Source of the DNA: Candidatus Nanohaloarchaea archaeon
Lineage (GTDB): Archaea; Nanohalarchaeota; Nanosalinia; Nanosalinales; Nanosalinaceae
DNA: 15,964 nt
Assembly (NCBI GenBank): GCA_042218325.1
Contig: JBDGRE010000020.1
Location: 1 to 15,964 of the forward strand
Direction of reading: 5' to 3'
Shown here: in pieces, positions 1 through 15,678 of the stretch
Layout of the letters: every line of letters begins with the position of its first letter
How positions within the stretch are numbered: position 1 is the stretch's first letter
Notes under the pieces: model-generated
What the model was told of the DNA's origin: nothing
Database searches by the model: none
The model's input: the letters and a program-made list of their open reading frames with translations, nothing else
Position numbers and translations under genes: made by a program

Positions 1-29
1 ATCCGCACAACCACGGAGGCAACGGGGCA

Positions 30-212
30 GTGACCATCCGCTGCACCCAGTGCCACACCCTGTCAGTCGAATACCAAAGCAGCTTCGGCTTCGAAGAATG
101 GCACTGCAAAAGTTGCGGGTACTGCGTCAGACAGAACCGGTACAGCGGTTTCATCAAAAAAGGCCGCAACGTCCAACCCGAGCTCCAGGACGAAGAGGTG
201 CAGCCTGAATGA
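30..212 (+). CDS. Small Zn-finger/Zn-ribbon protein
   Basis: CTQC...CKSC motif pair; GGAGG at 15-19 before the GTG start; ATGA overlap with the next gene. Confidence 0.75.
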   Translation: MTIRCTQCHTLSVEYQSSFGFEEWHCKSCGYCVRQNRYSGFIKKGRNVQPELQDEEVQPE

Positions 213-490
213 CTGAGGTCGCGGAAACCTCTATCAGTGCCTACCACGACATCCTTGAGAGCGGGCAGGTCAGCGAACAAGCAACCAAAGTCCTCAAAGC
301 ACTCCAAGCCTTGGACCATCCGCCCACCATCAACGAACTCAGCATGGGTCCGCTCGCCGGATGGCAAAAATCGACGATTTCAGGGAGGCTCAACGACCTG
401 AAAGACGAAGGCCTGGTCCACGTCCCCGGCAAAAGAGCCGACAAACACAACAACCGCAAGGCCAAGATCTGGGAGCTGACGATTCAATGA
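209..490 (+). CDS. Winged helix-turn-helix DNA-binding protein (MarR-like)
   Basis: T-INELS...KSTISGRLNDLKDEGLV wHTH pattern; translationally coupled on both sides. Confidence 0.8.
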   Translation: MTEVAETSISAYHDILESGQVSEQATKVLKALQALDHPPTINELSMGPLAGWQKSTISGRLNDLKDEGLVHVPGKRADKHNNRKAKIWELTIQ

Positions 491-981
491 AAGGACCTGT
501 CACACTGGAAGAAGCGGGCAGCGAGGAGATAGCGCAGGCAGTCAACACACTTGCGGACCGCGTGAACTCCCTAGAGGACCAAAACGTTGAACTCAAAGAT
601 CGTGTCACTGAGCTTGAAGAGGAGAAAAGAAAACTGCGTGGCCGCATCGACGAACTAGAAGAAGAAGTCAAAGTGGCGAAAGGCGGTAGGCAGCCAAACA
701 GCAAGCTTCAAGTGACGGACAGCGACGGCAAGCTGACGGAAGAATCGCTAAAGGTAATGCGCAAGACGCGTGACGGACCTGTCAGTGATGGAATGAGGAC
801 CAAGGACGTGAAGCAACTGCTCTCAAGTCTTGGTTATGATCGTCACCGTAGCACGGTTATTGAGTTTATGAAGAAGCTTGCTTCGAGTAGGCAGGCACTT
901 GTCTACAGATCTGCGAATGATTCGAAATCCAGGACCAAGCATTCCCGTTTAATTTGGGATGAATCCAAGCTGGAGATTTAG
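487..981 (+). CDS. Coiled-coil protein with putative C-terminal wHTH; candidate replication initiator
   Basis: True start is likely the ATG at 487 (ATGA overlap), giving 164 aa. N-terminal heptads (LADRVNSLEDQNVELKDRVTELEEE); C-terminal TKDVKQLL...HRSTVIEFMKKL HTH-like pattern. Lies directly upstream of the inverted-repeat region. Confidence 0.7.
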   Translation: MKGPVTLEEAGSEEIAQAVNTLADRVNSLEDQNVELKDRVTELEEEKRKLRGRIDELEEEVKVAKGGRQPNSKLQVTDSDGKLTEESLKVMRKTRDGPVSDGMRTKDVKQLLSSLGYDRHRSTVIEFMKKLASSRQALVYRSANDSKSRTKHSRLIWDESKLEI

Positions 982-1261
982 TGTTGTGACTGGTCGATGC
1001 ACGGCTGTTGTGCTAAAAACCCCAACACAACATCGGTTTTTCGAACCGAAGTGTTACCGAGGGGTGACGCGCGATGTTGGGAAATCGGCTAGCCAACGCC
1101 TAAGTATAGGTATATACCAGTATAACCGATTAATAATTAGTTATGACCCTGATTCTTCAGGGTCTAATTATCTCAGAAAATCCGTGACTTCTTCGCATCT
1201 TAGACCCGATGTTGTGTTGGGGTTTTTGACGCAACGGTCGGATACCGAAGAGTCACAACAC
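981..1261. repeat. Nested inverted repeats around an AT-rich core; candidate replication origin
   Basis: Perfect 22 bp IR at 1015-1036/1206-1227 and perfect 11 bp IR at 981-991/1251-1261, both centred on 1121. Repeated TGTTGTG motif; AT-rich core at ~1101-1145. Confidence 0.75.
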
Positions 1262-1286
1262 ATTTTTCGGAGGTGCAACTGACAGA

Positions 1287-1733
1287 ATGGTGTTCACAAA
1301 GAACAGGCCAAAACACAGCCAAACCACCTGGGGATTCGAAACCTTCAGGCACACGAACCAAATTCAAGCACACAAGTTCAAAATCAAATCAAAGGCGGTA
1401 GCTCGAGACACCGAAGACGCATTTCAGCAGGCAGCAGATGTTGAAGGACAGTCGGTGTATAAGCTGGCGCCGGGCAACAACTTCGACACACTGATAAAAA
1501 AGAAGAATGTCTCCAAAGGTGTTTTGAAAGCACTCAAATACAGGTATGATTTAGAGTGGGAAGAGATTTCTAAGGCGGGGTTACCAGATTTTTTAGTTGT
1601 TGATGGCTATGGAGAGCCGTTCTTTGTTGAGTTGAAGAAAGAGGGGACTGGTTTAGGAAGGAATCAGCTTAAGTGGTTCGTTCGGTTCAACAAACAGCCT
1701 AATTACCTATGCTACGCGGTGCGTGCGCCGTGA
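1287..1733 (+). CDS. VRR-NUC-like PD-(D/E)xK nuclease (possible junction resolvase)
   Basis: GLPDFLVV...FFVELKKEGTGLGRNQLKW motif; GGAGGTG Shine-Dalgarno upstream. Confidence 0.8.
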   Translation: MVFTKNRPKHSQTTWGFETFRHTNQIQAHKFKIKSKAVARDTEDAFQQAADVEGQSVYKLAPGNNFDTLIKKKNVSKGVLKALKYRYDLEWEEISKAGLPDFLVVDGYGEPFFVELKKEGTGLGRNQLKWFVRFNKQPNYLCYAVRAP

Positions 1734-1788: not shown

Positions 1789-2052
1789 ATGGCAGACGAC
1801 ATCGTTTTCGACGCGGACAACGAGCCAAAACCCAGTACACAGCAGGAATCGACGGGCGACCGACCAGTCTTTAAAGGACCGGGCGACGTTGCGGCGGCGT
1901 GGCTTGAAGAAGCGCAGGACGGGACCTACTACCTCAGCGTGCAAATTGATGTACCGTTCCTCGGTAAGGAGAACATTCCGTTGTTCCCGACGGAGGCCAA
2001 GGACATGGAAAAGTTGTTTCAAAAGGCAGGGACGGTGGCCTCAGAGAAGTAG
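1789..2052 (+). CDS. Acidic DUF736-like protein, putative ssDNA-binding protein
   Basis: Likely start at ATG 1789 (87 aa); VAAAWLEEAQDGTYYLSVQIDVP resembles the DUF736 consensus (GAAW...G..YlSv.lD.P). Confidence 0.6.
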   Translation: MADDIVFDADNEPKPSTQQESTGDRPVFKGPGDVAAAWLEEAQDGTYYLSVQIDVPFLGKENIPLFPTEAKDMEKLFQKAGTVASEK

Positions 2053-2190
2053 GGGCCGAGTTACTCGATTTCGGTCTTTAAGCCTTTCTTTTTCCGGGGT
2101 TTCAGGTACATGTGCTCGGACGGTTCTTCTTTGGGCAAGGGTAATAGAACAAGATATGGGTAAGACCACATACCCGGAGGCTGTTTCCGC

Positions 2191-2475
2191 GTGATTCCGC
2201 CGGGAAAGGGCGAAACAGTCTCCAGTGCATACAATTACGGGTTTATGTTGGCTGTTGAGAAGTTTGAGATCATTATCTTCGCGGTTTTCACCGGACTGTT
2301 CCTGAATCAGGTGGCGCAGATCTCTTTGAATCGCGGATGGGTGGACGCGCCGAAGGAAACGGCGCTGGCTGAGACGGTCAGGGATGCCGGGCTTCAGATG
2401 GCGTGGGTGTTGAGCATCTGGCTGGTCGTGACTTCGCAGATTTTCGGAAAGGCGTTGAGGGTGACCGGCGGATGA
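2191..2475 (+). CDS. Small membrane protein with two predicted TM segments
   Basis: Two hydrophobic stretches; GGAGG before the GTG start; ATGA overlap with the next gene. Confidence 0.65.
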   Translation: MIPPGKGETVSSAYNYGFMLAVEKFEIIIFAVFTGLFLNQVAQISLNRGWVDAPKETALAETVRDAGLQMAWVLSIWLVVTSQIFGKALRVTGG

Positions 2476-2747
2476 AAGAAAAGAATGCAGTGAGCGAGTC
2501 CAAGTTCAACAAGATTATGGAAAGGGTAACAGACAAAATTGATGAGTCGGAGCACGGCCTCGAAGTGGGGTTGGAGAACTGGAGGAATCAGATGGTTTTG
2601 CTTCGTCGTGCTGGCGTGGCGGACGACGACCTGGAGGATATGTTCTCCGAGCTTGAGGATTATGTCGAGGACGGGGACCGTGAGTCCGCGGAGCAGGTCA
2701 GTGCTGCGATGCGTGAAAAGGTGAAGACGGAGCTGCTGGCCAGATGA
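2472..2747 (+). CDS. Acidic helical hypothetical protein
   Basis: Start at ATG 2472 by ATGA overlap (91 aa); D/E-rich halophilic composition. Confidence 0.7.
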   Translation: MKEKNAVSESKFNKIMERVTDKIDESEHGLEVGLENWRNQMVLLRRAGVADDDLEDMFSELEDYVEDGDRESAEQVSAAMREKVKTELLAR

Positions 2748-3025
2748 AAGCCACCAAGCACTGCAACACGGAGACAGTTGAGCGCGTGTTCAAGGCTTTG
2801 TGCCGGAACCAGCTGCGGCATCAGCCGGAGAGAAATTATCCCAGGAGGATTATTCGCGATACGGATCTCGGTCGGAAAGCTGTTGCGAGCGCGTTGAATC
2901 ACTTGGAGAGGATTGGAGTGGTTAAGCGTGAGTGGAACGGGCGCAGAAAGCAGTTGACCGTGAACCCAGCTGTGTTGGAGTCGTTGAAAGAGGATTCAGA
3001 GCCCGAGTCCGAGGTCGAGGCCTAG
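2744..3025 (+). CDS. Winged helix-turn-helix protein
   Basis: RRIIRDTDLGRKAVASALNHLERIGVV wHTH pattern; last gene of the plus-strand operon. Confidence 0.75.
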   Translation: MKATKHCNTETVERVFKALCRNQLRHQPERNYPRRIIRDTDLGRKAVASALNHLERIGVVKREWNGRRKQLTVNPAVLESLKEDSEPESEVEA

Positions 3026-3241
3026 CTCGAAGTCATTTCTTTTGTTCATCTCTTCTTCTATGAATGAGATGTCTGCCTTGTATCTCCGTGTTTTGTAGCC
3101 TGTTGCGCGGTATTTCCTGCTTTGGAGGCGTTTTTTGACTTTGTCTGCTCCGAGTCTGCGGGCGGCTTTCCTGAGGAATGGTCTTCGTTCTTGGGCGTTG
3201 GCTGTGACGCGGTAGCCGAAGTCTTCGAGTGTGTCGGTCAT
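2996..3241 (-). CDS. Small basic protein, putative virion nucleoprotein
   Basis: Strongly K/R-rich in an otherwise acidic proteome; final gene of the structural operon, coupled to the upstream gene. Confidence 0.65.
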   Translation of the reverse strand: MTDTLEDFGYRVTANAQERRPFLRKAARRLGADKVKKRLQSRKYRATGYKTRRYKADISFIEEEMNKRNDFELGLDLGLGL

Positions 3242-3603
3242 GTGAAGATTCGTGCGGCTGCGACCGCGACGAACGCGGATACCGCTACCGCAAGGCCTGT
3301 GAGTATTCCGGTTCCGAACGGCAGGAGGCCGAACTGGGTGAGGGTGAAGGCTGTTGGTATCATGACTGCTGCGGTGGTGTCGAGGCTGGTCTGGTTTTGG
3401 TAGAGTCCGAATCCTAGTACGGCGAGGAGTGCGATTCCTGTGAGTGGTCTTGTGCCGACTGTTTGGGGTCCGATGGCTGTCCCGATTTCTGTGGCGAGTT
3501 TCTGGGTTTTGAGTTGGCCTGTGGTGTTCGCCAGGTCTGCGTATGTCGGTGGTTCAGTGACGTTTAAGTTGTTGTAGCTGAGTTTTTCTGTGTAGTTTGT
3601 CAT
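3238..3603 (-). CDS. Membrane protein, probably structural
   Basis: Several hydrophobic segments in the C-terminal half; N-x-T sequons near the N-terminus; ATGA coupling. Confidence 0.75.
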   Translation of the reverse strand: MTNYTEKLSYNNLNVTEPPTYADLANTTGQLKTQKLATEIGTAIGPQTVGTRPLTGIALLAVLGFGLYQNQTSLDTTAAVMIPTAFTLTQFGLLPFGTGILTGLAVAVSAFVAVAAARIFT

Positions 3604-3989
3604 CGGATTCCTCCTCCGCGGAACGCGGCTATTACTGCGACTATTGCCTGGATTGCGAGTATTCCCTGGACGAAGAGTTTGAAGGCTTGTGGCACGAAGC
3701 TCAGGTTTCCTATGACTATGATCGGTGCGAACAGGAGTTCAACGAGCGGTCCGAGGAGCGGTGCCGCAAGCACGGCGTCCGTGAGTCCTCCGCCTGTTCC
3801 TGTCCCGGTTTCGGTCCGGTTTTCGAGTGCTCCGACGACCTTTCCGTCGCCTCTGAACTGGTTGACGTATTGTTTCGGTGTACTTCCGTCCGGTCCGTCT
3901 CCGAGTGGGACGAAGCCTGCGCTGCCCATCGTGAACAGGATAAAGTTGAGTGTGAAGTTGAACACCAGGACTTGGCTGGCGGATACCAT
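3600..3989 (-). CDS. Membrane protein, probably structural
   Basis: N- and C-terminal hydrophobic helices; coupled to the spike gene by TAATG. Confidence 0.75.
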   Translation of the reverse strand: MVSASQVLVFNFTLNFILFTMGSAGFVPLGDGPDGSTPKQYVNQFRGDGKVVGALENRTETGTGTGGGLTDAVLAAPLLGPLVELLFAPIIVIGNLSFVPQAFKLFVQGILAIQAIVAVIAAFRGGGIR

Positions 3990-6900
3990 TATTGGAAGAA
4001 CACCGCTGCTGTGACGCCTATCAAGGTCGTTGTGAATACTGCTGGGTTGACGAATCCGATGAGTGCGAAGCCTCCGAGCACTGTTAATGCGAGGAGTCCT
4101 CCTCCAACGCGGTTGATTTGCCTGCCTGTTGCTATGCCTGTGGCGGAGACCACTATGATGGCGATAAAGCTCTGTGTGATGTCTCCGGTTGTGGCCTTGA
4201 GCTTTTGAACGGCGAATCCGAGGCTGGTGTCACCGAGCTCGAACGGCTGGAGGACTGTGTATCTGCGGTCGTAGTTGAAGCGTTCTCCGTTGCTTGTGAA
4301 GAAGCCCTCGACCCGGACCTGTTTCGTGTCGTTCAAAGTGAGGTTGGCGGTGACTGTTCCTCCGGTGCTGCTCCCGGTCTCAACCTTTTCGAATATCTTC
4401 GCCCCTGTCTTGTTGAAGACTTGAAGTCCGAAGACGGAGATGCTGTTCTCGCTGTCTATCACGGTGTAGTTCAAAGTGGTGTTCGGTTTCAGCGTGGCTT
4501 CTTGGGGTTTGAGGCGTTGGCTGACGCCTTGGAGTCTTGTTGTGAAGTTGAACTCCGAGGCGTCTGACAGGATGATCTGGAATGGTTTGAACTCGAAGTT
4601 CGCTGGGTTGAATGTTCCTTCGAATCCAACGAACTCGGGCGCGGTCACGACCGCGCGATACCTTGTGTCTGGGTCGAGGAAGAAGCTGGCTCCTCCTGCG
4701 GTACTGGTATCTGCCTGGGACACGGTTTTGAACGCGCCGTCGATGCGTTTCTGGATGGTGACCTGTGCGCCTGTAACAGGATTTCTTTTCGTGTCAAGCA
4801 CTTCGACACTTGTTCTTAGTCCTTGGTTCAGCGGCAGTAGGAAGGTGTCGAGCGTGGTCTTGGTGCTGCCTGTTATAGTGGTCTGATATGTCCGGGTTTG
4901 GAATCCTGGGCTTTCTACCTGTACGTCTACGTCTCCCTGGGGGAAACCTGATTTCTGTATAGCCTCGAAATCTAGGGTGGTTTGGCCTGTGTCCGGTGGC
5001 AGCGCTGTTATATCTTGTATTTGTATATTTGCGTTTTCGGTGTTGCCGTCGCCATCGTTGACGTTATAGCCAACTATGGTCATGCTTGTTACCCGTTTAG
5101 GGTTATCTAGCTGTATTTTATGGCTGCTTCCTGTATTCCCTACGTCCTCAATTCTCCCTATTCTTTGCCCGTTCACGTTTACCTCTAAATCCATTATTCC
5201 GCTGCCGCCGGTGTATGTCTCACTTATCTTTAATTCTCCGACTTTGAGGCTTGTGAGCCCGTTTTGATTTACTAAAGTCGCCTGGCCTGGGATCGAGCCT
5301 CCCTCCGTGATTGTTTTTTGCGGGCCGTTCCCGAACTCGGTTGTTATCTGGGTCTTGTTGAGTTGCTGGGTGGCCGTGGCGTTGCTGATTGTCACGGTTC
5401 GAGGGTCTAGTTCCTCGCTGGGTTTCTGTTCGTTGAAGGCGTTGAACGTGAATCCTGCGCGCTCCAGATCTAGGTTCAAGTCCTGGTTAAACGTGTTGTC
5501 TACGCCTGTCAGCGTCTGGTTTGACAGCGTAAATCCTGGGCTGTTTACCGTGACTGTAACGCTTCCTTTCGGTAACTCTGTGGTAAAGAACTCAAGCTGT
5601 CCGTCTGTCGTGTTTTTACTGAGTGTGTCTGTGCTGTTGCTGAATGTGGCGGTGAACTCGCTTATCTGCGTGTTCGATACTTTTGCGTCCGCGGTGAGCG
5701 TGTTTTTGATGTCAACTTTGAAGGTCTTGATGGTCTGGCCTTCGTTCCCGGCCTGGTCTTGTGCGAACACGGTTACGTTGTGTTGCCCGATGCTGCCGTA
5801 GTCTATCGTGGTGTTACCTGTGGTGCTTATCCGGGTGCCTCCGTCTTTCGCGTACTCGAACGTGGACGTGTCCGCGCTGCTGGTTGCGTCCGCTGCTTGG
5901 AACTTGAGAGGTATTCCTTGACTGCTGTTTGTTTTGCCGTCTGGCTCGAATATCGTGATGTTTGGCGGCGTTGTATCTATGGTGAACGTGCTGCTTTCCT
6001 GTTTGCTCCCGGCGTTCTCACTCGCCACGGCTTTAAAGCTGTGGCTTCCGTCCGCCTGGCTTGGAACAGTGCCGGTGAGAAAACCTTTGCCGGTGACGGT
6101 TTTGGTGTCGAACTTGGTTCCATCCACTTTCAAATTGACCGTGACCTGTTCGTTTGGCTCGCTGTCCGTGGTTGAGTCAACTGATACGTTAAACGCCGGG
6201 TTTTTCGTTCCTTTGAGGTTGGTCGGTTCAACGACTTGAACGCTCGGCGGGCTGTCCGTCAACGTCCTAGTCAACGCGGATGTGGCGGTTGCGCCATCGT
6301 TGTCTGCAACCGTAAAAGTTGCAGTTATGTCGCCTTCTGTCAGATTATCGGGAGGGCTGAAAGTACCGGATGCGGAACTTTTCGACCCCGTGAATATTGT
6401 CGTGCCATCGTCTTTTAGCGTGAGGTCTACGCTGCTAATCGTTCCATCCGGGTCGCTGGCACTGTACGAAAAATCTGCTGTTTGCCCGATCAAAGGAGGA
6501 TTAGGACTAATTGAAGTGGAACTAAACTGAGGTTTTGAATTAGGTATTACTCCATAGAAAGTAAGGTCCCCGATGTCTTGCTGACTTGATTCGCTATTAC
6601 TCGCAGCATGAGTCCAGTAGGCAAAAGTACTGGAGGGCGATGTATCGTAGTACCCCTTAAAATACTCGTAAGTACAGTAACCAGAGTTTGTTGATGGAGT
6701 ATAGAAAGTAATTTCGTAAGTATTCCCCTTTTTTATCTCATAATTTGAAATATCGAAGGTTACAGTAGTACTCCCACCAGTAATGTCGCTGAAAGCACCT
6801 ACTTTGGTTCCATCAGTCCAAGTGCTGTCAGCTCCTCCTTTATCTATGTATACTTCGACATTGACGTCTAGGACGGAGGTACAGTCCCCGTAAGAGTTTG

Positions 6901-7126
6901 GTGTCGGTATTTCAACCTTCTTAATTCTAAAGTCTTTATTGTAGTTGAACTCATGAGAAGAATGATAATATTTGGTGTCACGATACCCGAAGAAGTATGG
7001 TTGAAAATCTGGAGAGTTTCTTGAGCCATCCCCTATCGTATTAATAGTGTTAAATGACTTAGCCGATGCTCCGCCGACCATTCCAACTGCGAGAAATGCC
7101 AAACACAGAACCCGCCAAAGTTTCAC
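3989..7126 (-). CDS. Large membrane-anchored spike/adhesin glycoprotein with Ig-like domains
   Basis: Signal peptide (MKLWRVLCLAFLAVGMVGGASA); T/S-rich beta-strand repeats (ASDPDGTI, IDTTPPNITI, VFAQDQAGN); many N-x-S/T sequons; C-terminal TM helices, an architecture like fusellovirus VP4-type adhesins. Confidence 0.85.
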   Translation of the reverse strand: MKLWRVLCLAFLAVGMVGGASAKSFNTINTIGDGSRNSPDFQPYFFGYRDTKYYHSSHEFNYNKDFRIKKVEIPTPNSYGDCTSVLDVNVEVYIDKGGADSTWTDGTKVGAFSDITGGSTTVTFDISNYEIKKGNTYEITFYTPSTNSGYCTYEYFKGYYDTSPSSTFAYWTHAASNSESSQQDIGDLTFYGVIPNSKPQFSSTSISPNPPLIGQTADFSYSASDPDGTISSVDLTLKDDGTTIFTGSKSSASGTFSPPDNLTEGDITATFTVADNDGATATSALTRTLTDSPPSVQVVEPTNLKGTKNPAFNVSVDSTTDSEPNEQVTVNLKVDGTKFDTKTVTGKGFLTGTVPSQADGSHSFKAVASENAGSKQESSTFTIDTTPPNITIFEPDGKTNSSQGIPLKFQAADATSSADTSTFEYAKDGGTRISTTGNTTIDYGSIGQHNVTVFAQDQAGNEGQTIKTFKVDIKNTLTADAKVSNTQISEFTATFSNSTDTLSKNTTDGQLEFFTTELPKGSVTVTVNSPGFTLSNQTLTGVDNTFNQDLNLDLERAGFTFNAFNEQKPSEELDPRTVTISNATATQQLNKTQITTEFGNGPQKTITEGGSIPGQATLVNQNGLTSLKVGELKISETYTGGSGIMDLEVNVNGQRIGRIEDVGNTGSSHKIQLDNPKRVTSMTIVGYNVNDGDGNTENANIQIQDITALPPDTGQTTLDFEAIQKSGFPQGDVDVQVESPGFQTRTYQTTITGSTKTTLDTFLLPLNQGLRTSVEVLDTKRNPVTGAQVTIQKRIDGAFKTVSQADTSTAGGASFFLDPDTRYRAVVTAPEFVGFEGTFNPANFEFKPFQIILSDASEFNFTTRLQGVSQRLKPQEATLKPNTTLNYTVIDSENSISVFGLQVFNKTGAKIFEKVETGSSTGGTVTANLTLNDTKQVRVEGFFTSNGERFNYDRRYTVLQPFELGDTSLGFAVQKLKATTGDITQSFIAIIVVSATGIATGRQINRVGGGLLALTVLGGFALIGFVNPAVFTTTLIGVTAAVFFQ

Positions 7127-7365
7127 CGCGCCCGCCTCCTTCTCTTCTTTCGTGCTGAAAGCTCTGTGTTTGCAGCAGCACTCCCGAGGACAAGCAACAG
7201 AAACAACGGGAAGAACCCGGCCATAAAAGCCTTTGTCAACGGGTTCTCGGCTGTCTGAAACCCGGTGCTCAAGGCCTCAAACAGGACTGGGGCCATGGCC
7301 GCGGAAAGAAACAGGACTGATCCGATGAAAAGAACGGAGGTAAAGGTGATGAGACGGCCCTTCAA
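7123..7365 (-). CDS. Hydrophobic hairpin protein with poly-basic tail; possible minor capsid protein
   Basis: Probable TTG start at 7365 overlapping the upstream stop (TTGA), 80 aa; two hydrophobic helices followed by RKKRRRRAR. Confidence 0.65.
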   Translation of the reverse strand: MKGRLITFTSVLFIGSVLFLSAAMAPVLFEALSTGFQTAENPLTKAFMAGFFPLFLLLVLGSAAANTELSARKKRRRRAR

Positions 7366-7559
7366 CGTATTTCGTCGCCTCCTATCGCGCTCGTGACCGT
7401 TGACAGAAGCAAGATCGCCGGAATCGAAATCAGGATGAGGTCGGCGACCTGCCCCGTGAACGGCAGAATCGTGTTTACGGCCTGCTGCATCAATGGGACG
7501 ACAGCTGCGAAGGCCGCCAACGTGACTAAAAGTCCGACAATATTTTCCACGCTGCTCAC
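7362..7559 (-). CDS. Capsid-protein paralogue (minor capsid protein)
   Basis: 65 aa two-helix hairpin. VVPLMQQAVNT...TGQVADLILISIPAILLL parallels GIPVVQEVINT...TGISATVVGFVPVGL of the MCP. Confidence 0.7.
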   Translation of the reverse strand: MSSVENIVGLLVTLAAFAAVVPLMQQAVNTILPFTGQVADLILISIPAILLLSTVTSAIGGDEIR

Positions 7560-9688
7560 AGTAGATCACCTCCGGTCGATGGCTGGAATCCTGAAAGAAG
7601 ATTTATCTCGGTTCGCTGGCTTTCCTCCAGTTCAAAGCTTTCGACCTCCTGTCCGCGGCTTTGTATGATACTGGCTCCGACCAAGCCGAACTGCGCCTCC
7701 GCCGGAGCTTCTTCTCCGAAGACAGCCTCGCTGTCTTCTCCGGCTTCTTGTTCCCGGGGCTGCTGTGTGTCGAAGTCCGGTGCTTGGAACGGTGTTCCGC
7801 TGCCTTGGTTCGGTGGCGTGGTGGAGGTCGGTGTGCCTGGTTCCGGGTTTGAGAATACGGATCCGGGGAACGGTGTGTCCTGCCGCGTTCTCCCTCTGTT
7901 TGTTTGGAAGGCGAAGGGCGTTGTGTCTAGGTCGGTGTTGAGGCCTGTGTCCTGTCCCTGCGCTTGGCCCTGGGGTTGTTCTTGTATCTCGCGGTTGAAT
8001 GGTGTCTGGTCCTGCTGGTTTTCGGGTGTTGTTGTCTGTGTGTTCTGCGTTGTACTGGTTTCTTGGGTTTGGCCGACCGCTACCGTGGGTGCGACGGTGG
8101 TGACATCGGACGGAGAGATGGTGTCGGTGCCTCCTCGGTTCCGCGTGGCCGCAGAAAGGTCAGGTCTCTCCGGTCTGCCTCTGCCAGCCGGGTCGGGAAG
8201 GCTGTCTCCAGGCCTCGAGGTATCGCCGAAAAGGTCTCTAAGCGAATCACTCGATACCTCCGGCCTCTTCTCTTGAACAAGAGAACCAGCTCCGCTTCCC
8301 AAAGCATTCGGATCCTCGACAGCGCTCTGTGCATCTGAAAGAAATTGCTCGACCCTGCTGCGCTGCTCCGGCGTTACCTCTACCTCGACGCCGCCGTCGT
8401 CCGTGAATCCTGCTATGTTCAGCGAGCTCGCGCCCTCGCGCTCCGCAAGTATACTGGCTTCCTGCTGCGAAAGCGTCAGGGTGTCGTCGGCCTCGCTTGC
8501 TGGAGCGGTGAAGTCGGAGGAACGGTCCTGGGCTGTCCGTAGCTGTGTCCGGCTTGCGGCCTCCTCCGAGACTTGGAGAAGGTCCTCGCCGCGCTGGTCT
8601 TGGTCTTGGAACTCGACATCTGTTTGTTCCTCCCTAGTATCCGGTCTTCGTGTATCTGGTTGCTGGCGGGTTCTTCTGCGGCTCTGCACCACGGAGTCCG
8701 GCTGGACTACCCCGGGGTTGGAGGCGACATCCGCAGTTTCTCCCGTCTGTTTTCTCCCGAGCTCTTCACCTAGAGTCCTCTGGTTGAAAGGTGTGTCGTC
8801 CAACGTGGCTTCTGTGCCGGAGGCCTCGGACCTGGTTTTGACAGGCCCAGTCTTTGTGGTGACATCTGTTTCGGTTCTTGATGCTCCTCGTGCCAGGGCG
8901 GTGCCGATGGCCGGAGCTGCTGCCGCGCCTGCGCCTGCGAGAGCGAGCTGGGTTCCGACAGCTTTTTGCCTGTTCTCTGCTGCTTCGGCTCTTAGGCTGT
9001 TCGGGTTGGCTCCGGCAGCGATCGCTCCTTGGATGCCGCCGGGCACTTTGCCGCTTCGTGCCTGTCTTGTGCCGCGTATCTGTTCTTCGACGAAGTCCGC
9101 CGGGCCTACTGTGGTGGCGCGTTGGATGTCCTGAGGTATCTGGGTGACGCCGCGGATAGCGGAACGCCCGACTGTCTCGGCTGTTCCAACTCCCTCGGCC
9201 AGTGTGTCGGTTGGTCCGGGGAGTTGTTCGATTCTTTGTTCTGTCCTTGCTGCTTTCTCAGCTGGGCCTCGTTGAAGCTGGTTCTCGCCCTCCAGGTTCT
9301 CCTGAGTCGGGCTGATTGTCGCTGGTTCATCGCTCGCTCTTGCCTCATCGCTTTTTCTGCTTGGGTCGGTGTCTTCGATTACGTTGTCGCTTGTGAACCC
9401 TGCGGTGTCGCTGACTTGAGGGTCGCCCGCCGGGTCGTCCACACCTCTGTCCGCGGAACCCTGCTTGTTGACATCTTTCGCATCTTTCCCAGCTCCTGAA
9501 CCACCGACGTCGACTCCTGTGGCTTTCTGTACTTCGTCCTCTACCTTGTCGACAGTGTCCTCTGCGCCGACAGCCTCCGCTGCATCCTCCGCGGCCTCTT
9601 GAGCTGTGTCAACAGCCTCGTCCGCCGCGTCCTTCGCTGCATCAGCTGCGTCTCCTGCTGCATCTGCAACACTGTCGAGAAAACCCAT
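7556..9688 (-). CDS. Large acidic low-complexity protein, probably virion-associated
   Basis: 710 aa; A/D-rich amphipathic N-terminus, an A/G-rich hydrophobic patch, and a Q/T/P/D-rich disordered remainder; lies within the structural operon. Confidence 0.8.
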   Translation of the reverse strand: MGFLDSVADAAGDAADAAKDAADEAVDTAQEAAEDAAEAVGAEDTVDKVEDEVQKATGVDVGGSGAGKDAKDVNKQGSADRGVDDPAGDPQVSDTAGFTSDNVIEDTDPSRKSDEARASDEPATISPTQENLEGENQLQRGPAEKAARTEQRIEQLPGPTDTLAEGVGTAETVGRSAIRGVTQIPQDIQRATTVGPADFVEEQIRGTRQARSGKVPGGIQGAIAAGANPNSLRAEAAENRQKAVGTQLALAGAGAAAAPAIGTALARGASRTETDVTTKTGPVKTRSEASGTEATLDDTPFNQRTLGEELGRKQTGETADVASNPGVVQPDSVVQSRRRTRQQPDTRRPDTREEQTDVEFQDQDQRGEDLLQVSEEAASRTQLRTAQDRSSDFTAPASEADDTLTLSQQEASILAEREGASSLNIAGFTDDGGVEVEVTPEQRSRVEQFLSDAQSAVEDPNALGSGAGSLVQEKRPEVSSDSLRDLFGDTSRPGDSLPDPAGRGRPERPDLSAATRNRGGTDTISPSDVTTVAPTVAVGQTQETSTTQNTQTTTPENQQDQTPFNREIQEQPQGQAQGQDTGLNTDLDTTPFAFQTNRGRTRQDTPFPGSVFSNPEPGTPTSTTPPNQGSGTPFQAPDFDTQQPREQEAGEDSEAVFGEEAPAEAQFGLVGASIIQSRGQEVESFELEESQRTEINLLSGFQPSTGGDLL

Positions 9689-9690
9689 GT

Positions 9691-10293
9691 CTAAAATCTC
9701 ACATCCAGTTCAACACCGAGCTTGTTCCCGGTGGTTTCGTCCTCGAACTCGAAGGCCTCGCTCTCGGTTCCCTCGACATTCAACGAACTCCCGCCTAGGT
9801 CGACACCGAGGTCTGCGCCGCCGGAGTCAACGCCCTGGGCGTCGCCGCCGAATATGTCATCCGTCCGCAGGCCGAGGTCGTTTGGCTCGCCGAACGCACG
9901 CCTGAAGCTGTCCTGCACGCTGTCAGTGCTCTCGGCGATGCTGAGGAAGCTGCTGCCAAGACCGGATGCAGCTGTCTCGTTGCTGCGCAACGCCTGTTCA
10001 TCCTCCTGCTGCATTTTTCTTCGCTGCTTCTCCCTCTCTTTCAGCTCTTTGGCCTTTTCTTTCGCTTTCTTAACAGTTGACATGTCTCCGCGGGACGCAG
10101 CCTGTTTTGCCTTCTGCTTCAAGGCGTTCAGCTTGGCGCGGATACCTGTCGAAGAATCCTCGACCTGGTCGTCCAGGCTGTCACCAAAGTTCCGTGCATC
10201 CGCCACGGACACTCTTTCATCGTCGGAATCATCTCGCGGCGTTGTATCGGCCAGAGGCACACGACTGTCGCCTATTTGTCTTTCTCGGGCCAT
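9691..10293 (-). CDS. Hypothetical protein with central charged coiled coil
   Basis: 200 aa; K/E-rich helix followed by a D/G-rich tail; ends 2 nt before the next start; GGAG upstream. Confidence 0.7.
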   Translation of the reverse strand: MARERQIGDSRVPLADTTPRDDSDDERVSVADARNFGDSLDDQVEDSSTGIRAKLNALKQKAKQAASRGDMSTVKKAKEKAKELKEREKQRRKMQQEDEQALRSNETAASGLGSSFLSIAESTDSVQDSFRRAFGEPNDLGLRTDDIFGGDAQGVDSGGADLGVDLGGSSLNVEGTESEAFEFEDETTGNKLGVELDVRF

Positions 10294-12092: not shown

Positions 12093-12477
12093 GACGCGGA
12101 TCCCTGAGTGGCATCTAGGGAAGGCACGTACCGAGCAGATCGGCGAGGTACTCGGTCAGACGAACCAGGAGCTCCGGACTGTGTACCGGGACAGGAGCCT
12201 GGACGATGTGGAGGAGTGGTTTGCCTCGCTCCGGGCCTTGTGGCGGAGCTTCAAGTATTTCGTGCCAGAGGAGGACCGCCGCGAGACCGAGCAGATGATC
12301 GACAGGTTCTACGAAAAGCTGAACCGAGACAAGGCTGCGATGGAAAAAATATCACGCCGCGAAATCGGAGAGCTCCACGACCAGGTGCAGCGACTCTTGG
12401 TTGAGGAGTCAGGCCTCGGAATCCCAACGAAAGCAGCCGACGAAGATGAGTACGGGCCGGAGGACCTGTACCTGTGA
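12076..12477 (+). CDS. Helical hypothetical protein coupled to the ATPase gene
   Basis: GGAGGTGA Shine-Dalgarno before the GTG start; GTGA overlap with the ATPase gene. Confidence 0.75.
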   Translation: MSETDETRIPEWHLGKARTEQIGEVLGQTNQELRTVYRDRSLDDVEEWFASLRALWRSFKYFVPEEDRRETEQMIDRFYEKLNRDKAAMEKISRREIGELHDQVQRLLVEESGLGIPTKAADEDEYGPEDLYL

Positions 12478-13325
12478 CGGAGTACCTCCAAAACAGTATC
12501 AGGAAGGCGTTGGACAGTACGAAAGAGCGTGTGAAGTCACGGGACAAGGACGCCGTCTTTCTCGTGACCGGGGGGGAGGGCAACGGGAAGTCATCTCTGT
12601 CAATCCTTATGGCGAACTACCTCGACCCTGACTTCGACGCCGGCGAACAGATTGTTATGGACCACGAAGACCTGATTCGGACAGCGGACGAGCTCTCCAG
12701 CTACCAGAGCATCGTGTTCGATGAGGGAATCGAAAGCCTGTTGAGCAGGAACCACGGCAAGAGCCGGAACAAGATGATGATAGAATGGTTCCGCGAGGTC
12801 CGAGCCAAGAACCTGTTCATCTTCGTGAACATGCCGGAGTTCAAGGAGGTTGAGAAACCGATTAGGGACGACCGCGCTCACATGCTTGTGAGATGCGTGA
12901 AGCAGGGATGGGCGCACTTTTACAACGAGGACAGGATGCAGGAGATAGTTGTCGAAAGACGCGGCAACCGCGTCCGGGCGGAGTATTCCGACCCGATATT
13001 CAAGGCAGGTTGGAAGGATCCGTCCGACCTCGACTTGTGGCCTGCGTACCAGGAGATGAAGAAGGAGAACGTCTCCAACCTAGCTGGCAAGTATCTTGAC
13101 GGCAATGAGGACGACAAGGGCCGATATGAGAAGAAGCTGCGCAGGCTTCGCATGAGGGTGGCGAAGACAGGTGTCAAAACTGGAATGAGCCAATCTGATG
13201 CGATGAGAGATTTGCTCGACATGGATCCATCAACATACACAAGGTGGAAGAAGAAAGGCGAGCTCGGCAACATACCTCCGTTCAAGCCCTTGATTGATGA
13301 TGGAGATGATTCTACACACGCGTGA
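12474..13325 (+). CDS. P-loop ATPase (putative morphogenesis/packaging ATPase) with C-terminal HTH
   Basis: Walker A GGEGNGKS; Walker B IVFDE; C-terminal SQSDAMRDLLDMDPSTYTRW HTH-like motif. Confidence 0.85.
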   Translation: MTEYLQNSIRKALDSTKERVKSRDKDAVFLVTGGEGNGKSSLSILMANYLDPDFDAGEQIVMDHEDLIRTADELSSYQSIVFDEGIESLLSRNHGKSRNKMMIEWFREVRAKNLFIFVNMPEFKEVEKPIRDDRAHMLVRCVKQGWAHFYNEDRMQEIVVERRGNRVRAEYSDPIFKAGWKDPSDLDLWPAYQEMKKENVSNLAGKYLDGNEDDKGRYEKKLRRLRMRVAKTGVKTGMSQSDAMRDLLDMDPSTYTRWKKKGELGNIPPFKPLIDDGDDSTHA

Positions 13326-13586: not shown

Positions 13587-13615
13587 AAAAAAAGAGGTGT
13601 TCGCGCTACGCGAAC
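13587..13615 (-). terminator. Possible terminator after the AbrB-like gene
   Basis: GTTCGCG-3nt-CGCGAAC hairpin (13599-13615) followed by T7 on the minus strand. The T-run could instead serve as the TATA element of the next gene. Confidence 0.4.
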
Positions 13616-13991: not shown

Positions 13992-15197
13992 GTGGCAGAC
14001 GTACACAACCGCACACAGATCAACAAGAGAATGTCCGCAAAACTGGAGGAAAGCAGCCTCTCCCAAGAAAACACGGAATCCGTCCAAGCCTTCGTTGACA
14101 AGCTCAAAGCCAGCGGCATCGGAAAAGACAGGATAAGAAACTACCTCTGGAGCTTCGAATACCTCGCCGACCACATAGACTTCGCCCTCGAAGACGCAAC
14201 ACAAGACGAACTCATCAAACTAGCCGGAGTCATCAACGGCGACCTCAGAGAAGACCTGTCAGAATACAGCATCGCCGAACTCAAGAAAACACTGTCAAAA
14301 TACTACGGCTGGCACCTGGACCGCCGCAGCGACATAGACTTCCTCGGCACCACAGTTGACCAGACACGGATGGAAGGCCTCAAACCCGAAGAAGTCCTCA
14401 GACCGAGCGAAGTCAAAAGCATCGTCCGCAGCGCATCCAACCCCCGAGACAAAGCACTCATCATGACACTCTGGGCCAGCGGCGGACGCATCGAAGCCAC
14501 GTTGAACACGCGTTGGAAGGACCTCGAGCTCGACGGCCTAGGCAGCCAGCTCCGGTTCACAAGCAACAAAACACAGCCCCGCCGCGTACCAGTCGCGGAA
14601 GCCGCACCCTACCTGAAAGCATACGCAGAGGTTACAGACGCAGATCCCGATGACTACATCTTCACCAAGGGCGAGGGCTGGCAGAAGGACGAAGGCACAA
14701 CCCAGGAACAGATGAACTACGGCACAGCCTACAGCGCCATAGACCGCGCCGTCCAAAACACCGACATACCCGAAACAAGGCAGACAAGCCCGCACGGATA
14801 CCGGAAGAGCAGAGCCACCTTCCTCGCCAGCCAAGGCATGAACGCACCACAACTAATGGAGTTCTTCGGCTGGAGCCAAATGGAAACAGCGAAGAAGTAC
14901 GTCGGCCTAGCACAGAACCAGCTCGAAAGTGCGTTCAACGAAGCCATCGGCCTCCAAGACCAAGACCAGACCGGCCTGGACATGGACGAAGAAGAGCTCC
15001 GGCCCCGGCGTTGCCACGTCTGCGGCAGCATCGTCAGCCCCGCACAAAAAAGCTGCTACAACTGCAGCACAACCATCACAGCCGACGACCTGCTCTCAGC
15101 CTTGGAACCAGAAAAAGAACAAGCCGTGAGCCCCGACAGCGCTTTGGACATGCTGAAAAACATGGACGCAGACGAGCTTAAACAATTTTTAGACTAG
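13992..15197 (+). CDS. int: Tyrosine recombinase/integrase with C-terminal Zn ribbon
   Basis: Catalytic residues R (SGGRIEA), K (SNKT), HxxR (PHGYR), FGW and Y (AKKY); C-terminal CHVC...CYNC. Confidence 0.93.
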   Translation: MADVHNRTQINKRMSAKLEESSLSQENTESVQAFVDKLKASGIGKDRIRNYLWSFEYLADHIDFALEDATQDELIKLAGVINGDLREDLSEYSIAELKKTLSKYYGWHLDRRSDIDFLGTTVDQTRMEGLKPEEVLRPSEVKSIVRSASNPRDKALIMTLWASGGRIEATLNTRWKDLELDGLGSQLRFTSNKTQPRRVPVAEAAPYLKAYAEVTDADPDDYIFTKGEGWQKDEGTTQEQMNYGTAYSAIDRAVQNTDIPETRQTSPHGYRKSRATFLASQGMNAPQLMEFFGWSQMETAKKYVGLAQNQLESAFNEAIGLQDQDQTGLDMDEEELRPRRCHVCGSIVSPAQKSCYNCSTTITADDLLSALEPEKEQAVSPDSALDMLKNMDADELKQFLD

Positions 15198-15589: not shown

Positions 15590-15678
15590 TGTGTTAAAGT
15601 ATTGCTGAGTCAAGACTTAGAACAGGTCTGGTTCAAGAATAGACAACCTATATAAATGCTGTACTACATTAGTACGTT
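15590..15678. promoter_or_regulatory. Divergent promoter/operator region (putative genetic switch)
   Basis: TATATAAA at 15649-15656 (plus); TTTAA at 15598-15594 (minus); palindrome GTACTA-cat-TAGTAC at 15661-15675. Confidence 0.65.

Follow-up and report, generated by a model that had tools for sequence, protein, structure and literature searches.

A candidate Orc1-independent replication origin beside a coiled-coil winged-helix gene on a circular element binned with a nanohaloarchaeon-like genome

The stretch of DNA analyzed here (the window, 15,964 nt, that is positions 1–15964 of contig C13) belongs to an apparently circular, integrase-bearing element that was binned with a nanohaloarchaeon-like genome. 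Directly behind a gene for a 164-residue protein composed of a coiled coil and a winged helix-turn-helix (CC-wHTH), the window contains nested inverted repeats (IRs) at 981–1261, and this arrangement raises the question of whether the element starts its replication there and, if so, what marks the place. Neither Pfam nor PHROGs names a Rep protein, a primase, an MCM or an Orc1 on the element, apart from a weak label attached to an ATPase gene. We consider that the locus is probably an origin of some kind, and we lean, with less assurance, towards an origin that does without Orc1 and has the CC-wHTH protein bound to its arms as a dimer. The case draws on the sequence architecture, on the linkage of a gene family to such repeats, on the likeness to the host oriC and on a dimer model, from which we infer all steps of the mechanism.

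The inverted-repeat locus and the adjoining protein

Analysis of the locus confirms the symmetry that an earlier note on this DNA had described. A 22-mer at 1015–1036 is the exact reverse complement of 1206–1227 and an 11-mer at 981–991 that of 1251–1261, both pairs sharing the axis 1121; the left 11-mer begins on the final base of the TAG stop codon (979–981) of the CC-wHTH gene. The repeat coordinates given in the earlier note are exact, and the degenerate symmetry of the pair 1002–1012/1230–1240 and the recurrence of the heptamer TGTTGTG/CACAACA at 982, 1006, 1026, 1210 and 1254 were found as described there. An ungapped comparison of the left arm (981–1051) with the right arm (1191–1261) shows complementarity at 54 of their 71 positions. 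The left arm carries heptamers in the forward orientation at 982 and 1006 and in the reverse orientation at 1026. A possible reading gives each arm two heptamers that converge across 13 nt (TGTTGTG-N13-CACAACA) and a single box outside them: on the left the pair is 1006/1026 and the outer box 982, while on the right 1210 pairs with a degenerate heptamer close to 1230 and the outer box is 1254. Together with two further copies at 446 and 4538, the heptamer occurs seven times in the window against 2.38 expected (standard deviation 1.49), a number reached in 3 of 200 shuffles; five of the seven copies fall inside the 281-nt IR unit. The core between the arms (1052–1190), which includes a local hairpin (1145–1152/1157–1164), has a GC content of 0.42 that falls to 0.30 at 1101–1180, the value of the whole window being 0.54, in agreement with the AT-rich core claimed earlier.

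A scan of all 35 contigs of the assembly for perfect IRs spanning 100–500 nt, with a minimum arm length of 16 nt, yields a single case, the locus at 981–1261. Folded as single-stranded DNA, the region 975–1268 reaches −65.3 kcal/mol, where shuffled sequences average −31.9 kcal/mol (z = −9.25, equalled by 0 of 200 shuffles). The locus is housed in the sole sizeable gap (982–1286, 305 nt) of an array of plus-strand genes, many of them overlapping their neighbors, that runs from about 10.4 kb across the circle junction to position 3025. A T5 tract lies on the plus strand just inside the left 22-mer (1037–1041), with more of them at 1223–1227 and 1263–1267; archaeal transcription terminates at oligo-T tracts, and these are possible candidates for terminators of the upstream operon. 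An open frame of 107 residues (959–1282, plus strand) spans the IR unit and was taken as a by-product of the repeat rather than as a gene. The 22-mer, used as a query against viral contigs, found no relatives.

The proposed origin-binding protein is the product of the adjoining gene (487–981, plus strand). Its division into a coiled coil and a winged helix, read from the sequence in the earlier note, is borne out by the AlphaFold model (mean predicted local distance difference test score, pLDDT, of 79.9), which comprises a long helix (residues 12–65), a linker of low confidence and a winged helix (residues 85–157). Of the oligomerization proposed in the same place, a parallel homodimer is the form for which modeling offers support. 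Two copies modeled together form a parallel, in-register coiled coil over residues 15–65, with a score of 0.62 against 0.01 for the best of three controls; the homodimer runs share at least 93% of their contacts and the partner pLDDT is at least 74. Of proteins solved as one-chain pairs, 20 of 30 reach the mark set for this score, compared with 1 of 23 among those solved as single chains; the coiled coil being a textbook interface, the pass may mirror a likeness to solved structures. The model is thus to be taken as likeness, not proof, that CC-wHTH forms a parallel coiled-coil homodimer.

Close relatives of the protein are limited to four among 5.8 billion clustered proteins (P0001–P0004, 67–89% identical). 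A profile search of 1.84 billion representatives yielded 44 sequences at E ≤ 1e-3, 19 of them at E ≤ 1e-10 and nearly all of 100–170 residues, whose source names ('hypothetical', 'TolA-binding', 'ZapB', 'DUF465'), where they name anything, owe this to the coiled coil alone. In the family alignment Q69, P70 and M128 are almost invariant, Q69 and P70 being present in at least 90% of 40 sequences. The latter two belong to a GGxQP motif (residues 65–75, window 679–711), located between the coiled coil and the winged helix, which is the most conserved feature of the family; it falls in the least confident part of the model and may be a partner-binding peptide. The window's protein has all the traits by which the family is defined, namely an N-terminal coiled coil, the GGxQP linker, a C-terminal winged helix and a length of 100–170 residues. 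Comparisons with known proteins gave little more: Pfam returned coiled-coil noise only, with no match to Rep_3, to another Rep family or to WhiP/Cdt1; Foldseek found no match in the PDB at E ≤ 0.001, its best being generic winged helices (Fur, histone H1 and the ORC2 winged-helix domain at E 0.19–0.25); and the neighbors in the ESM Atlas are unnamed clusters below 0.9 and generic winged-helix folds. Searches of viral contigs with CC-wHTH or P0005, and of metagenome contigs with the family alignment or P0005, found nothing.

Gene–repeat linkage and a palindrome shared with chromosomal origins

A profile search over 70 genomes of the phylum identified 11 other CC-wHTH loci at E ≤ 1e-8, and matches were absent from 60 of the 70 genomes. 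Three weaker matches in long open reading frames were left out of the tally of repeats (G014:C3, where inspection found no IR, G056:C133 and G044:C12). A long IR unit follows the gene in 7 of the 11 loci; the suggestion that such repeats might always follow the homologues holds for these seven and fails for the other four. Six of the seven possess a perfect IR with arms of 13–28 nt and a span of 225–360 nt that begins 0–60 nt past the stop codon. The arms measure 28 nt in G010:C58, 26 nt with an additional 14 nt in G010:C105, 25 nt in G017:C9, 15 nt in G043:C2 and 13 nt in G029:C37; in G003:C76, where the repeat begins at the stop codon as in the window, they extend over 21 nt perfectly and over 24 nt with one mismatch. 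In the seventh locus (G010:C82) arms of 23 nt, 96% complementary, lie about 870 nt downstream, behind an inserted gene on the opposite strand. Because the background is one such IR per megabase, the linkage between gene and repeat cannot be due to chance. The arm sequences themselves are unrelated from element to element, and several consist of element-specific repeated words in the manner of iterons, such as a 9-mer present six times in G017:C9.

Two of these loci give insight into the context of the module. In G017:C9 it is part of a provirus-like block inserted beside the genes for EF-2, EF-1alpha and S10, in the order winged helix-turn-helix (wHTH) gene, CC-wHTH gene, IR unit, membrane and spike-like proteins, and ATPase; the unit of gene, IR and box is whole and the contig has one copy of the palindrome described below. 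In G010:C58 (L029) the two genes past the IR unit (1806–2594, plus strand, and 2591–3283, minus strand) encode a 230-residue MCM_N/MCM_OB fragment (MCM_OB, E 2e-9) and a 262-residue protein with a C-terminus that matches the winged helix of archaeal MCM at E 1.1e-5 and 25.8 bits, slightly short of the 26.1-bit cut-off. As far as sequence matches tell, these genes provide a direct replication context for the module, and stand-alone MCM parts could serve as origin adaptors or as decoys. The same locus has tandem CC-wHTH paralogues (252–677 and 778–1392), the second with a C-terminal zinc ribbon.

Aligned side by side, the sister IR loci have in common a palindrome near the axis, TATAACACTGTTATA. 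The exact 15-mer occurs once in the window's own genome, at C15:20270, about 125 nt upstream of the start of orc1/cdc6 (18910–20145, minus strand; Pfam Cdc6_C, E 1.9e-28). This is the host oriC (G000:C15, approximately 20200–20360, L037), in which two copies of the palindrome, at 20270 and 20288, are located between inverted boxes TTCCAnnnGAAAtcaGGGGG(tGGGGG), the classical origin recognition box (ORB) with G-strings. The encoded Orc1/Cdc6 is 77–87% identical to Nanohaloarchaea, Nanosalina and Nanohalobium proteins. The parallel with archaeal origins, in which ORBs flank an unwinding element, had been drawn in the earlier note on the strength of the arms and the AT-rich core; it turns out to be closer than claimed, the sister and host loci having a common 15-bp palindrome that is degenerate in the window.

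Of 50 family genomes, 25 contain the exact 15-mer, mostly once, and none contains the reversed control pattern. Out of 41 exact places 30 were inspected as loci, corresponding to 29 distinct places: 22 are situated 130–220 nt from orc1, three beside a CC-wHTH gene and four beside neither. In oriC the palindrome typically appears in two to three copies with a spacing of 18–19 bp. The four remaining places involve an RtcA-like coding sequence (two), the end of an integrase gene (one) and a toxin–antitoxin-like region (one). The first of these (L053, G011:C1, position 1501) is inside a 351-residue coding sequence, by the look of it an RNA 3'-phosphate cyclase, and the second (L054, G072:C31, position 1501) has a near-identical flank; these copies imply that not every 15-mer marks an origin. 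In L056 (G073:C2) a distance of 30 nt separates an exact 15-mer from the end of an integrase gene (511–1515) whose product shares 37% identity with the integrase of the window; zinc-finger and ATPase genes follow as in the G003:C76 element, and the 3 kb inspected contain no CC-wHTH gene. Exact 15-mers about 840–900 nt apart, among PIN-like and ATPase genes, were also noticed in G036:C10 (2981, 3882) and G036:C25 (2134, 2997, 3832) (locus L055).

In order to follow the box beyond exact copies, 42 boxes taken from 18 chromosomal oriC loci were made into a position weight matrix (PWM), on which the exact 15-mer scores 26.9 bits. Of the 80 loci obtained in a survey with Orc1 as query, five in which the orc1 start coincides with the locus edge (L088, L092, L098, L100, L114) and three with less than 250 nt of upstream sequence (L070, L087, L102) were dropped. 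With a match defined as a score of at least 18 bits, a box lies upstream of orc1 in 65 of the 72 genomes scored. It was found in 27 of 28 where Orc1 is at least 77% identical to the host's (exact 15-mer in 15), in 8 of 9 at 60–76% identity (exact in 6) and in 30 of 35 below 60% (exact in 10), the last group being mostly labeled Aenigmatarchaeota; the group at or above 77% overlaps the genomes behind the matrix and the one below 60% does not.

Scanning the circular 19.63-kb element with this matrix places the best match, of 10.4 bits, at 1121–1135 (minus strand), with its center 7 nt off the IR axis; the runner-up scores 7.7 bits at 15649. In all eight IR-bearing loci, the window's included, the best box match of the inspected stretch falls between the arms, and sister loci carry the exact 15-mer there. 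A second matrix, for the ORB (17 instances; host oriC 23–31 bits), reached at best 11.0 bits over C13, at 13286, and none of its top matches is in 981–1261, as expected from the non-ORB boxes noted earlier. Pfam and PHROGs scans detected no orc1/cdc6 adjoining the locus or elsewhere on the element; the neighbor of the locus is the CC-wHTH gene.

A possible mechanism and its alternatives

We judge it somewhat more probable than otherwise that the CC-wHTH protein is the specific origin-binding initiator or adaptor of this locus. As a parallel coiled-coil dimer it would present two winged helices, and dimers occupying the heptamer boxes would build mirror-image protein arrays on the two arms, about 170 bp apart. 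These arrays would stand in for the ORB-bound Orc1/Cdc6 of the host chromosome and direct the host MCM to the AT-rich core, where a host factor would presumably read the degenerate central palindrome, by analogy with the Sulfolobus ucm motif and its binding protein UBP. The same intergenic stretch would also have to terminate the operon upstream and provide the start of the one downstream.

Several known systems resemble this scheme in part. As in archaeal Orc1/Cdc6 origins, an initiator-type gene adjoins the locus and inverted boxes flank an AT-rich core, and at the center lies what may be a degenerate copy of the 15-bp palindrome of the host oriC, whereas the element is devoid of orc1/cdc6, 981–1261 contains neither ORB nor G-string boxes, the arms consist of the element's own heptamers and the adjacent 164-residue protein has no ATPase domain. 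Iteron plasmid origins with a winged-helix Rep are exemplified by RepA of pPS10, RepE of F and pi of R6K. There, too, the gene for a small winged-helix protein lies beside replicon-specific repeated words that flank an AT-rich region, and an interplay of dimer and monomer is plausible for CC-wHTH as well; the differences are that CC-wHTH has no Rep match in Pfam and is modeled to dimerize through an N-terminal parallel coiled coil, that its boxes form a large mirror-image IR instead of direct iterons and that the host machinery is archaeal. In Sulfolobus, according to PMC12141716, ucm is positioned halfway between ORB2 and ORB3, and three origins, served by Orc1-1, Orc1-3 or the winged-helix protein WhiP, have it in common; UBP, which is confined to Sulfolobales and Desulfurococcales, binds ucm and contacts MCM's N-terminal domains, and the authors ask about analogous mid-origin factors in other archaeal lineages. 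The box resembles ucm, as described there, in being a short motif midway between flanking initiator sites and common to origins with different initiators, and differs from it in being a 15-bp palindrome, often in two to three tandem copies. If our reading holds, the locus would also share with oriC3/WhiP, as presented there, an origin defined by a winged-helix protein other than Orc1. General Pfam and Foldseek scans, with no dedicated comparison made, revealed no likeness of CC-wHTH to WhiP/Cdt1 or UBP.

A number of observations weigh against an origin bound by CC-wHTH. No IR unit was found at four of the 11 other loci (G010:C117, G010:C72, G065:C52 and G009:C2); moreover, five of the 11 come from the single genome G010, two of them near-duplicates, and the independent support amounts to about five genomes besides the window's. 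The box in the window is weak, at about 10 bits compared with 27 for the exact one; the other 1.05 Mb of the genome contain 55 sites that score as high or higher, about one per 19 kb, and the position on the axis, the part of the match that carries weight, was noticed post hoc. The winged helix is generic and would be equally suited to a repressor. Cumulative GC skew is not V-shaped, with a minimum at 455, a maximum at 13262 and no return to zero, and the orientation of the genes is out of step with forks leaving 1121. Finally, conservation of the boxes within the element's own lineage rests on the differences listed from read contigs. In that comparison (at least 80% likeness, four DNA runs) a 755-nt X3 contig covers 1007–1761 with 54 differences and short X10 contigs cover 1009–1341; among the differences listed, those in the IR locus (1044, 1088 and 1183, and insertions or deletions at 1181–1191) miss the perfect arms, which we did not count as evidence. 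Parts of 520–967 lie outside the X3 and X10 contigs and no conclusion was drawn for them.

The same architecture would equally be expected of an origin fired by host factors at the central box and the AT-rich core, in which CC-wHTH covers the arms as a regulator of copy number, handcuffing or lysogeny. The box occurs in chromosomes without a CC-wHTH gene (60 of the 70 genomes of the phylum have no match) and therefore works without this protein, and the winged-helix fold resembles that of the repressors Fur and MarR. Moreover, just outside the arms of G010:C105 (L024/L143) and G010:C82 (L057), words that resemble the ORB but have no G-string (16.3 and 11.7 bits) form direct repeats, and their sequence hints that the G010 elements might also engage the host Orc1. 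The window's element, on the other hand, has neither an ORB nor a recognized initiator gene, so that something else must define its origin, and element-specific arms at the places of ORBs suit an initiator better than a mere regulator. We regard an origin of this host-fired kind as unlikely.

A step further from replication, CC-wHTH might be a repressor or activator only, with the arms as operators for the operon that starts with the nuclease-like gene at 1287, and the locus ending the upstream operon. The position between two operons, the T5 tracts, an AT-rich TATA-like sequence and the generic fold are compatible with such a switch, and a precedent exists in Orf4 of the temperate pleolipovirus SNJ2, a small wHTH lysogeny repressor of an archaeal membrane virus that, according to PMC10123103, acts via a palindrome, represses the promoter of the integrase and cooperates with a homologue of Orc1/Cdc6. 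The window's element differs in being without an Orc1 homologue and in having its repeats away from the integrase gene, where they enclose a putative oriC-type box. Operators located past the regulator's own stop codon, on arms about 170–300 bp apart, would be unusual, and a switch leaves unexplained both the box between chromosomal ORBs (22 of the 29 places, in two to three copies at 18–19 bp in oriC) and the MCM-fragment genes at the sister locus G010:C58. We consider it quite unlikely.

A wHTH combined with a long coiled coil also recalls KfrA, and in a partition cassette the arms would be a centromere and CC-wHTH a KfrA- or AspA-like protein for binding or tethering it, for which boxes repeated in both orientations would be appropriate. 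The Pfam match to KfrA_N is far under the cut-off (E 0.018), no gene for ParA or another motor adjoins the locus, the ParB_N domain of the element lies elsewhere, fused to a DNA methylase, and the oriC-type central box and the AT-rich core would have no explanation; a role in partition is therefore improbable.

The strong predicted hairpin and the bounding of a 281-nt unit by inverted repeats could also belong to an insertion resembling a miniature inverted-repeat transposable element (MITE), to a gene for a structured non-coding RNA or to a large terminator hairpin. A dispersed MITE, which the earlier note had envisaged, was rejected: BLAST of 975–1270 and of the whole of C13 against the own genome returned only self matches for the IR region, which is single-copy in 1.07 Mb. 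An Rfam RNA family was likewise rejected, the window having 0 matches at the gathering score. Linkage to one gene family combined with a sequence that varies by element is unlike a transposing MITE or a conserved RNA, and we give readings of this group very little credence.

Tyrosine recombinase cores have an overlap region of 6–8 bp. A phage attachment site (attP), also envisaged at the outset, or another site-specific recombination site, with binding sites of the arm type and the small wHTH protein as directionality factor, would fit the presence of an integrase and the 15-mer 30 nt past its homologue in G073:C2, but was rejected as the least probable of all, because the IR locus lies about 7 kb round the circle from the integrase gene and has no BLAST match in the own genome, the unit is unsplit inside the integrated G017:C9 relative with its single 15-mer on the contig, and the 7-1-7 palindrome offers no such overlap region.

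The element and the significance of the module

The assembly holding the element comprises 1,072,872 nt (1.07 Mb) in 35 contigs and is 96% complete. Contig C13 measures 19,685 nt and has a gap of 100 N right behind the window (15965–16064); its ends overlap directly by 55 nt (1–55 = 19631–19685), which gives a circle of about 19.63 kb. Judged by these features C13 is a separate circular replicon, virus- or plasmid-like, and the window stretch is present in sequencing runs labeled salt lake metagenome. A tyrosine integrase is encoded at 13992–15197 (plus strand; Pfam Phage_integrase, E 3.5e-18), on account of which the element is classed as mobile; it is 37% identical (E 8e-58) to the integrase in the related chromosome G073:C2. 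It is to the AAA-type ATPase (12474–13325) that PHROGs weakly (E 1.1e-5) attaches the label 'DnaA-like replication initiation protein'; the ATPase shows no likeness to Pfam initiators and no BLASTP similarity to the ATPase of the provirus-like G017:C9, and found no relatives in a phage collection. As the ATPase is unrelated to that of G017:C9 and the integrase is only 37% identical to that of G073:C2, the module appears common to otherwise different elements, and such sharing is often typical of replication modules.

Two genes enclose the module within the plus-strand array. Upstream, a 93-residue winged-helix protein is encoded at 209–490 (plus strand), with a stop codon that overlaps the start of the 487–981 gene, which places both genes in one operon. 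It has Pfam HTH matches below the cut-off, belongs with phrog_1123 (function unassigned, E 3.9e-14) and has no BLASTP similarity to the wHTH genes adjoining the homologues in G017 and G010; not being conserved beside the homologues, it was left out of the module. Downstream, the first gene past the IR locus (1287–1733, plus strand), with GGAGGTG 10 nt ahead of its ATG, encodes a 148-residue protein resembling VRR-NUC/PD-(D/E)XK nucleases (Pfam VRR_NUC, E 3.3e-4, 21.1 bits, the cut-off being 23.8; phrog_5702 'Holliday junction resolvase', E 2.9e-5), for which a search of viral contigs found no relatives. A gene resembling Holliday junction resolvases thus directly follows a locus capable of large cruciform extrusion (z −9.25). 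The minus strand at 3238–10293 encodes a 1045-residue surface protein with Ig domains and several membrane proteins. The tail of C13 past the window encodes a fusion of ParB_N with an N6/N4 DNA methylase, another protein resembling methylases and a pair of zinc-ribbon proteins; the gene for the last of these crosses the circle junction into window positions 1–212. Another contig of the same bin (G000:C22, L016, 6.7 kb) matches the membrane-protein region at 3596–3992 with 78–92% identity across its own two ends, which points to another element, related to this one and perhaps circular; a further match of 25 nt (92%) involves window 13591–13615 and C22 3385–3409.

In gene content the element resembles the 'Nanopleoviridae' (DNPV-1 and ANPV-1), nanohaloarchaeal pleomorphic viruses which, in a preprint (bioRxiv 10.1101/2025.02.15.638363), are stated to 'not encode detectable replication proteins'. 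The features in common are the nanohaloarchaeal host, an integrase, membrane proteins, a large surface protein, an AAA ATPase and the want of a detectable replication protein; the element differs in its size of about 19.6 kb, compared with 9.1 kb. The terms 'origin of replication', 'inverted repeat', 'winged' and 'coiled' occur 0 times in the main text of this preprint, and the genome maps of DNPV-1 and ANPV-1 may show a CC-wHTH gene.

An initiator gene beside an IR-flanked origin is already known as a kind of arrangement; what is new are the putative family of initiators, the arms private to each element and the palindrome that lies mid-origin in elements and chromosomes alike. Full-text literature searches brought up no account of the CC-wHTH family, of the 15-mer box or of any oriC from nanohaloarchaea or DPANN archaea. 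The earlier interpretation, of an origin-like locus next to its binding protein, is partly supported, in that the architecture and the comparative tests made on sequences agree with it. A broader proposal, for which we would claim somewhat less than an even chance, is that origins in two DPANN phyla (Nanohaloarchaeota and Aenigmatarchaeota) are built on a 15-bp palindrome read by a host factor, and that viruses and plasmids have copied this core and swapped the Orc1/ORB arms for private arrays bound by ATPase-less GGxQP coiled-coil winged-helix initiators.

The module is small enough (164 residues and approximately 280 bp) for direct biochemistry, and the 15-mer is a ready bait for a mid-origin factor in other archaeal lineages. 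To our knowledge DPANN archaea are currently without genetic tools, and a compact origin would be useful for vectors. An origin set by CC-wHTH would join WhiP/oriC3 of Sulfolobus as a second natural example in which a winged-helix protein other than Orc1 determines an archaeal origin, and would reveal an Orc1-independent route to MCM loading in archaea. Recurring in otherwise unrelated elements, the unit of gene and origin is a concrete candidate for the replication function that has escaped detection in nanohaloarchaeal viruses of the pleomorphic type and, if this reading is true, would be the module they are missing.

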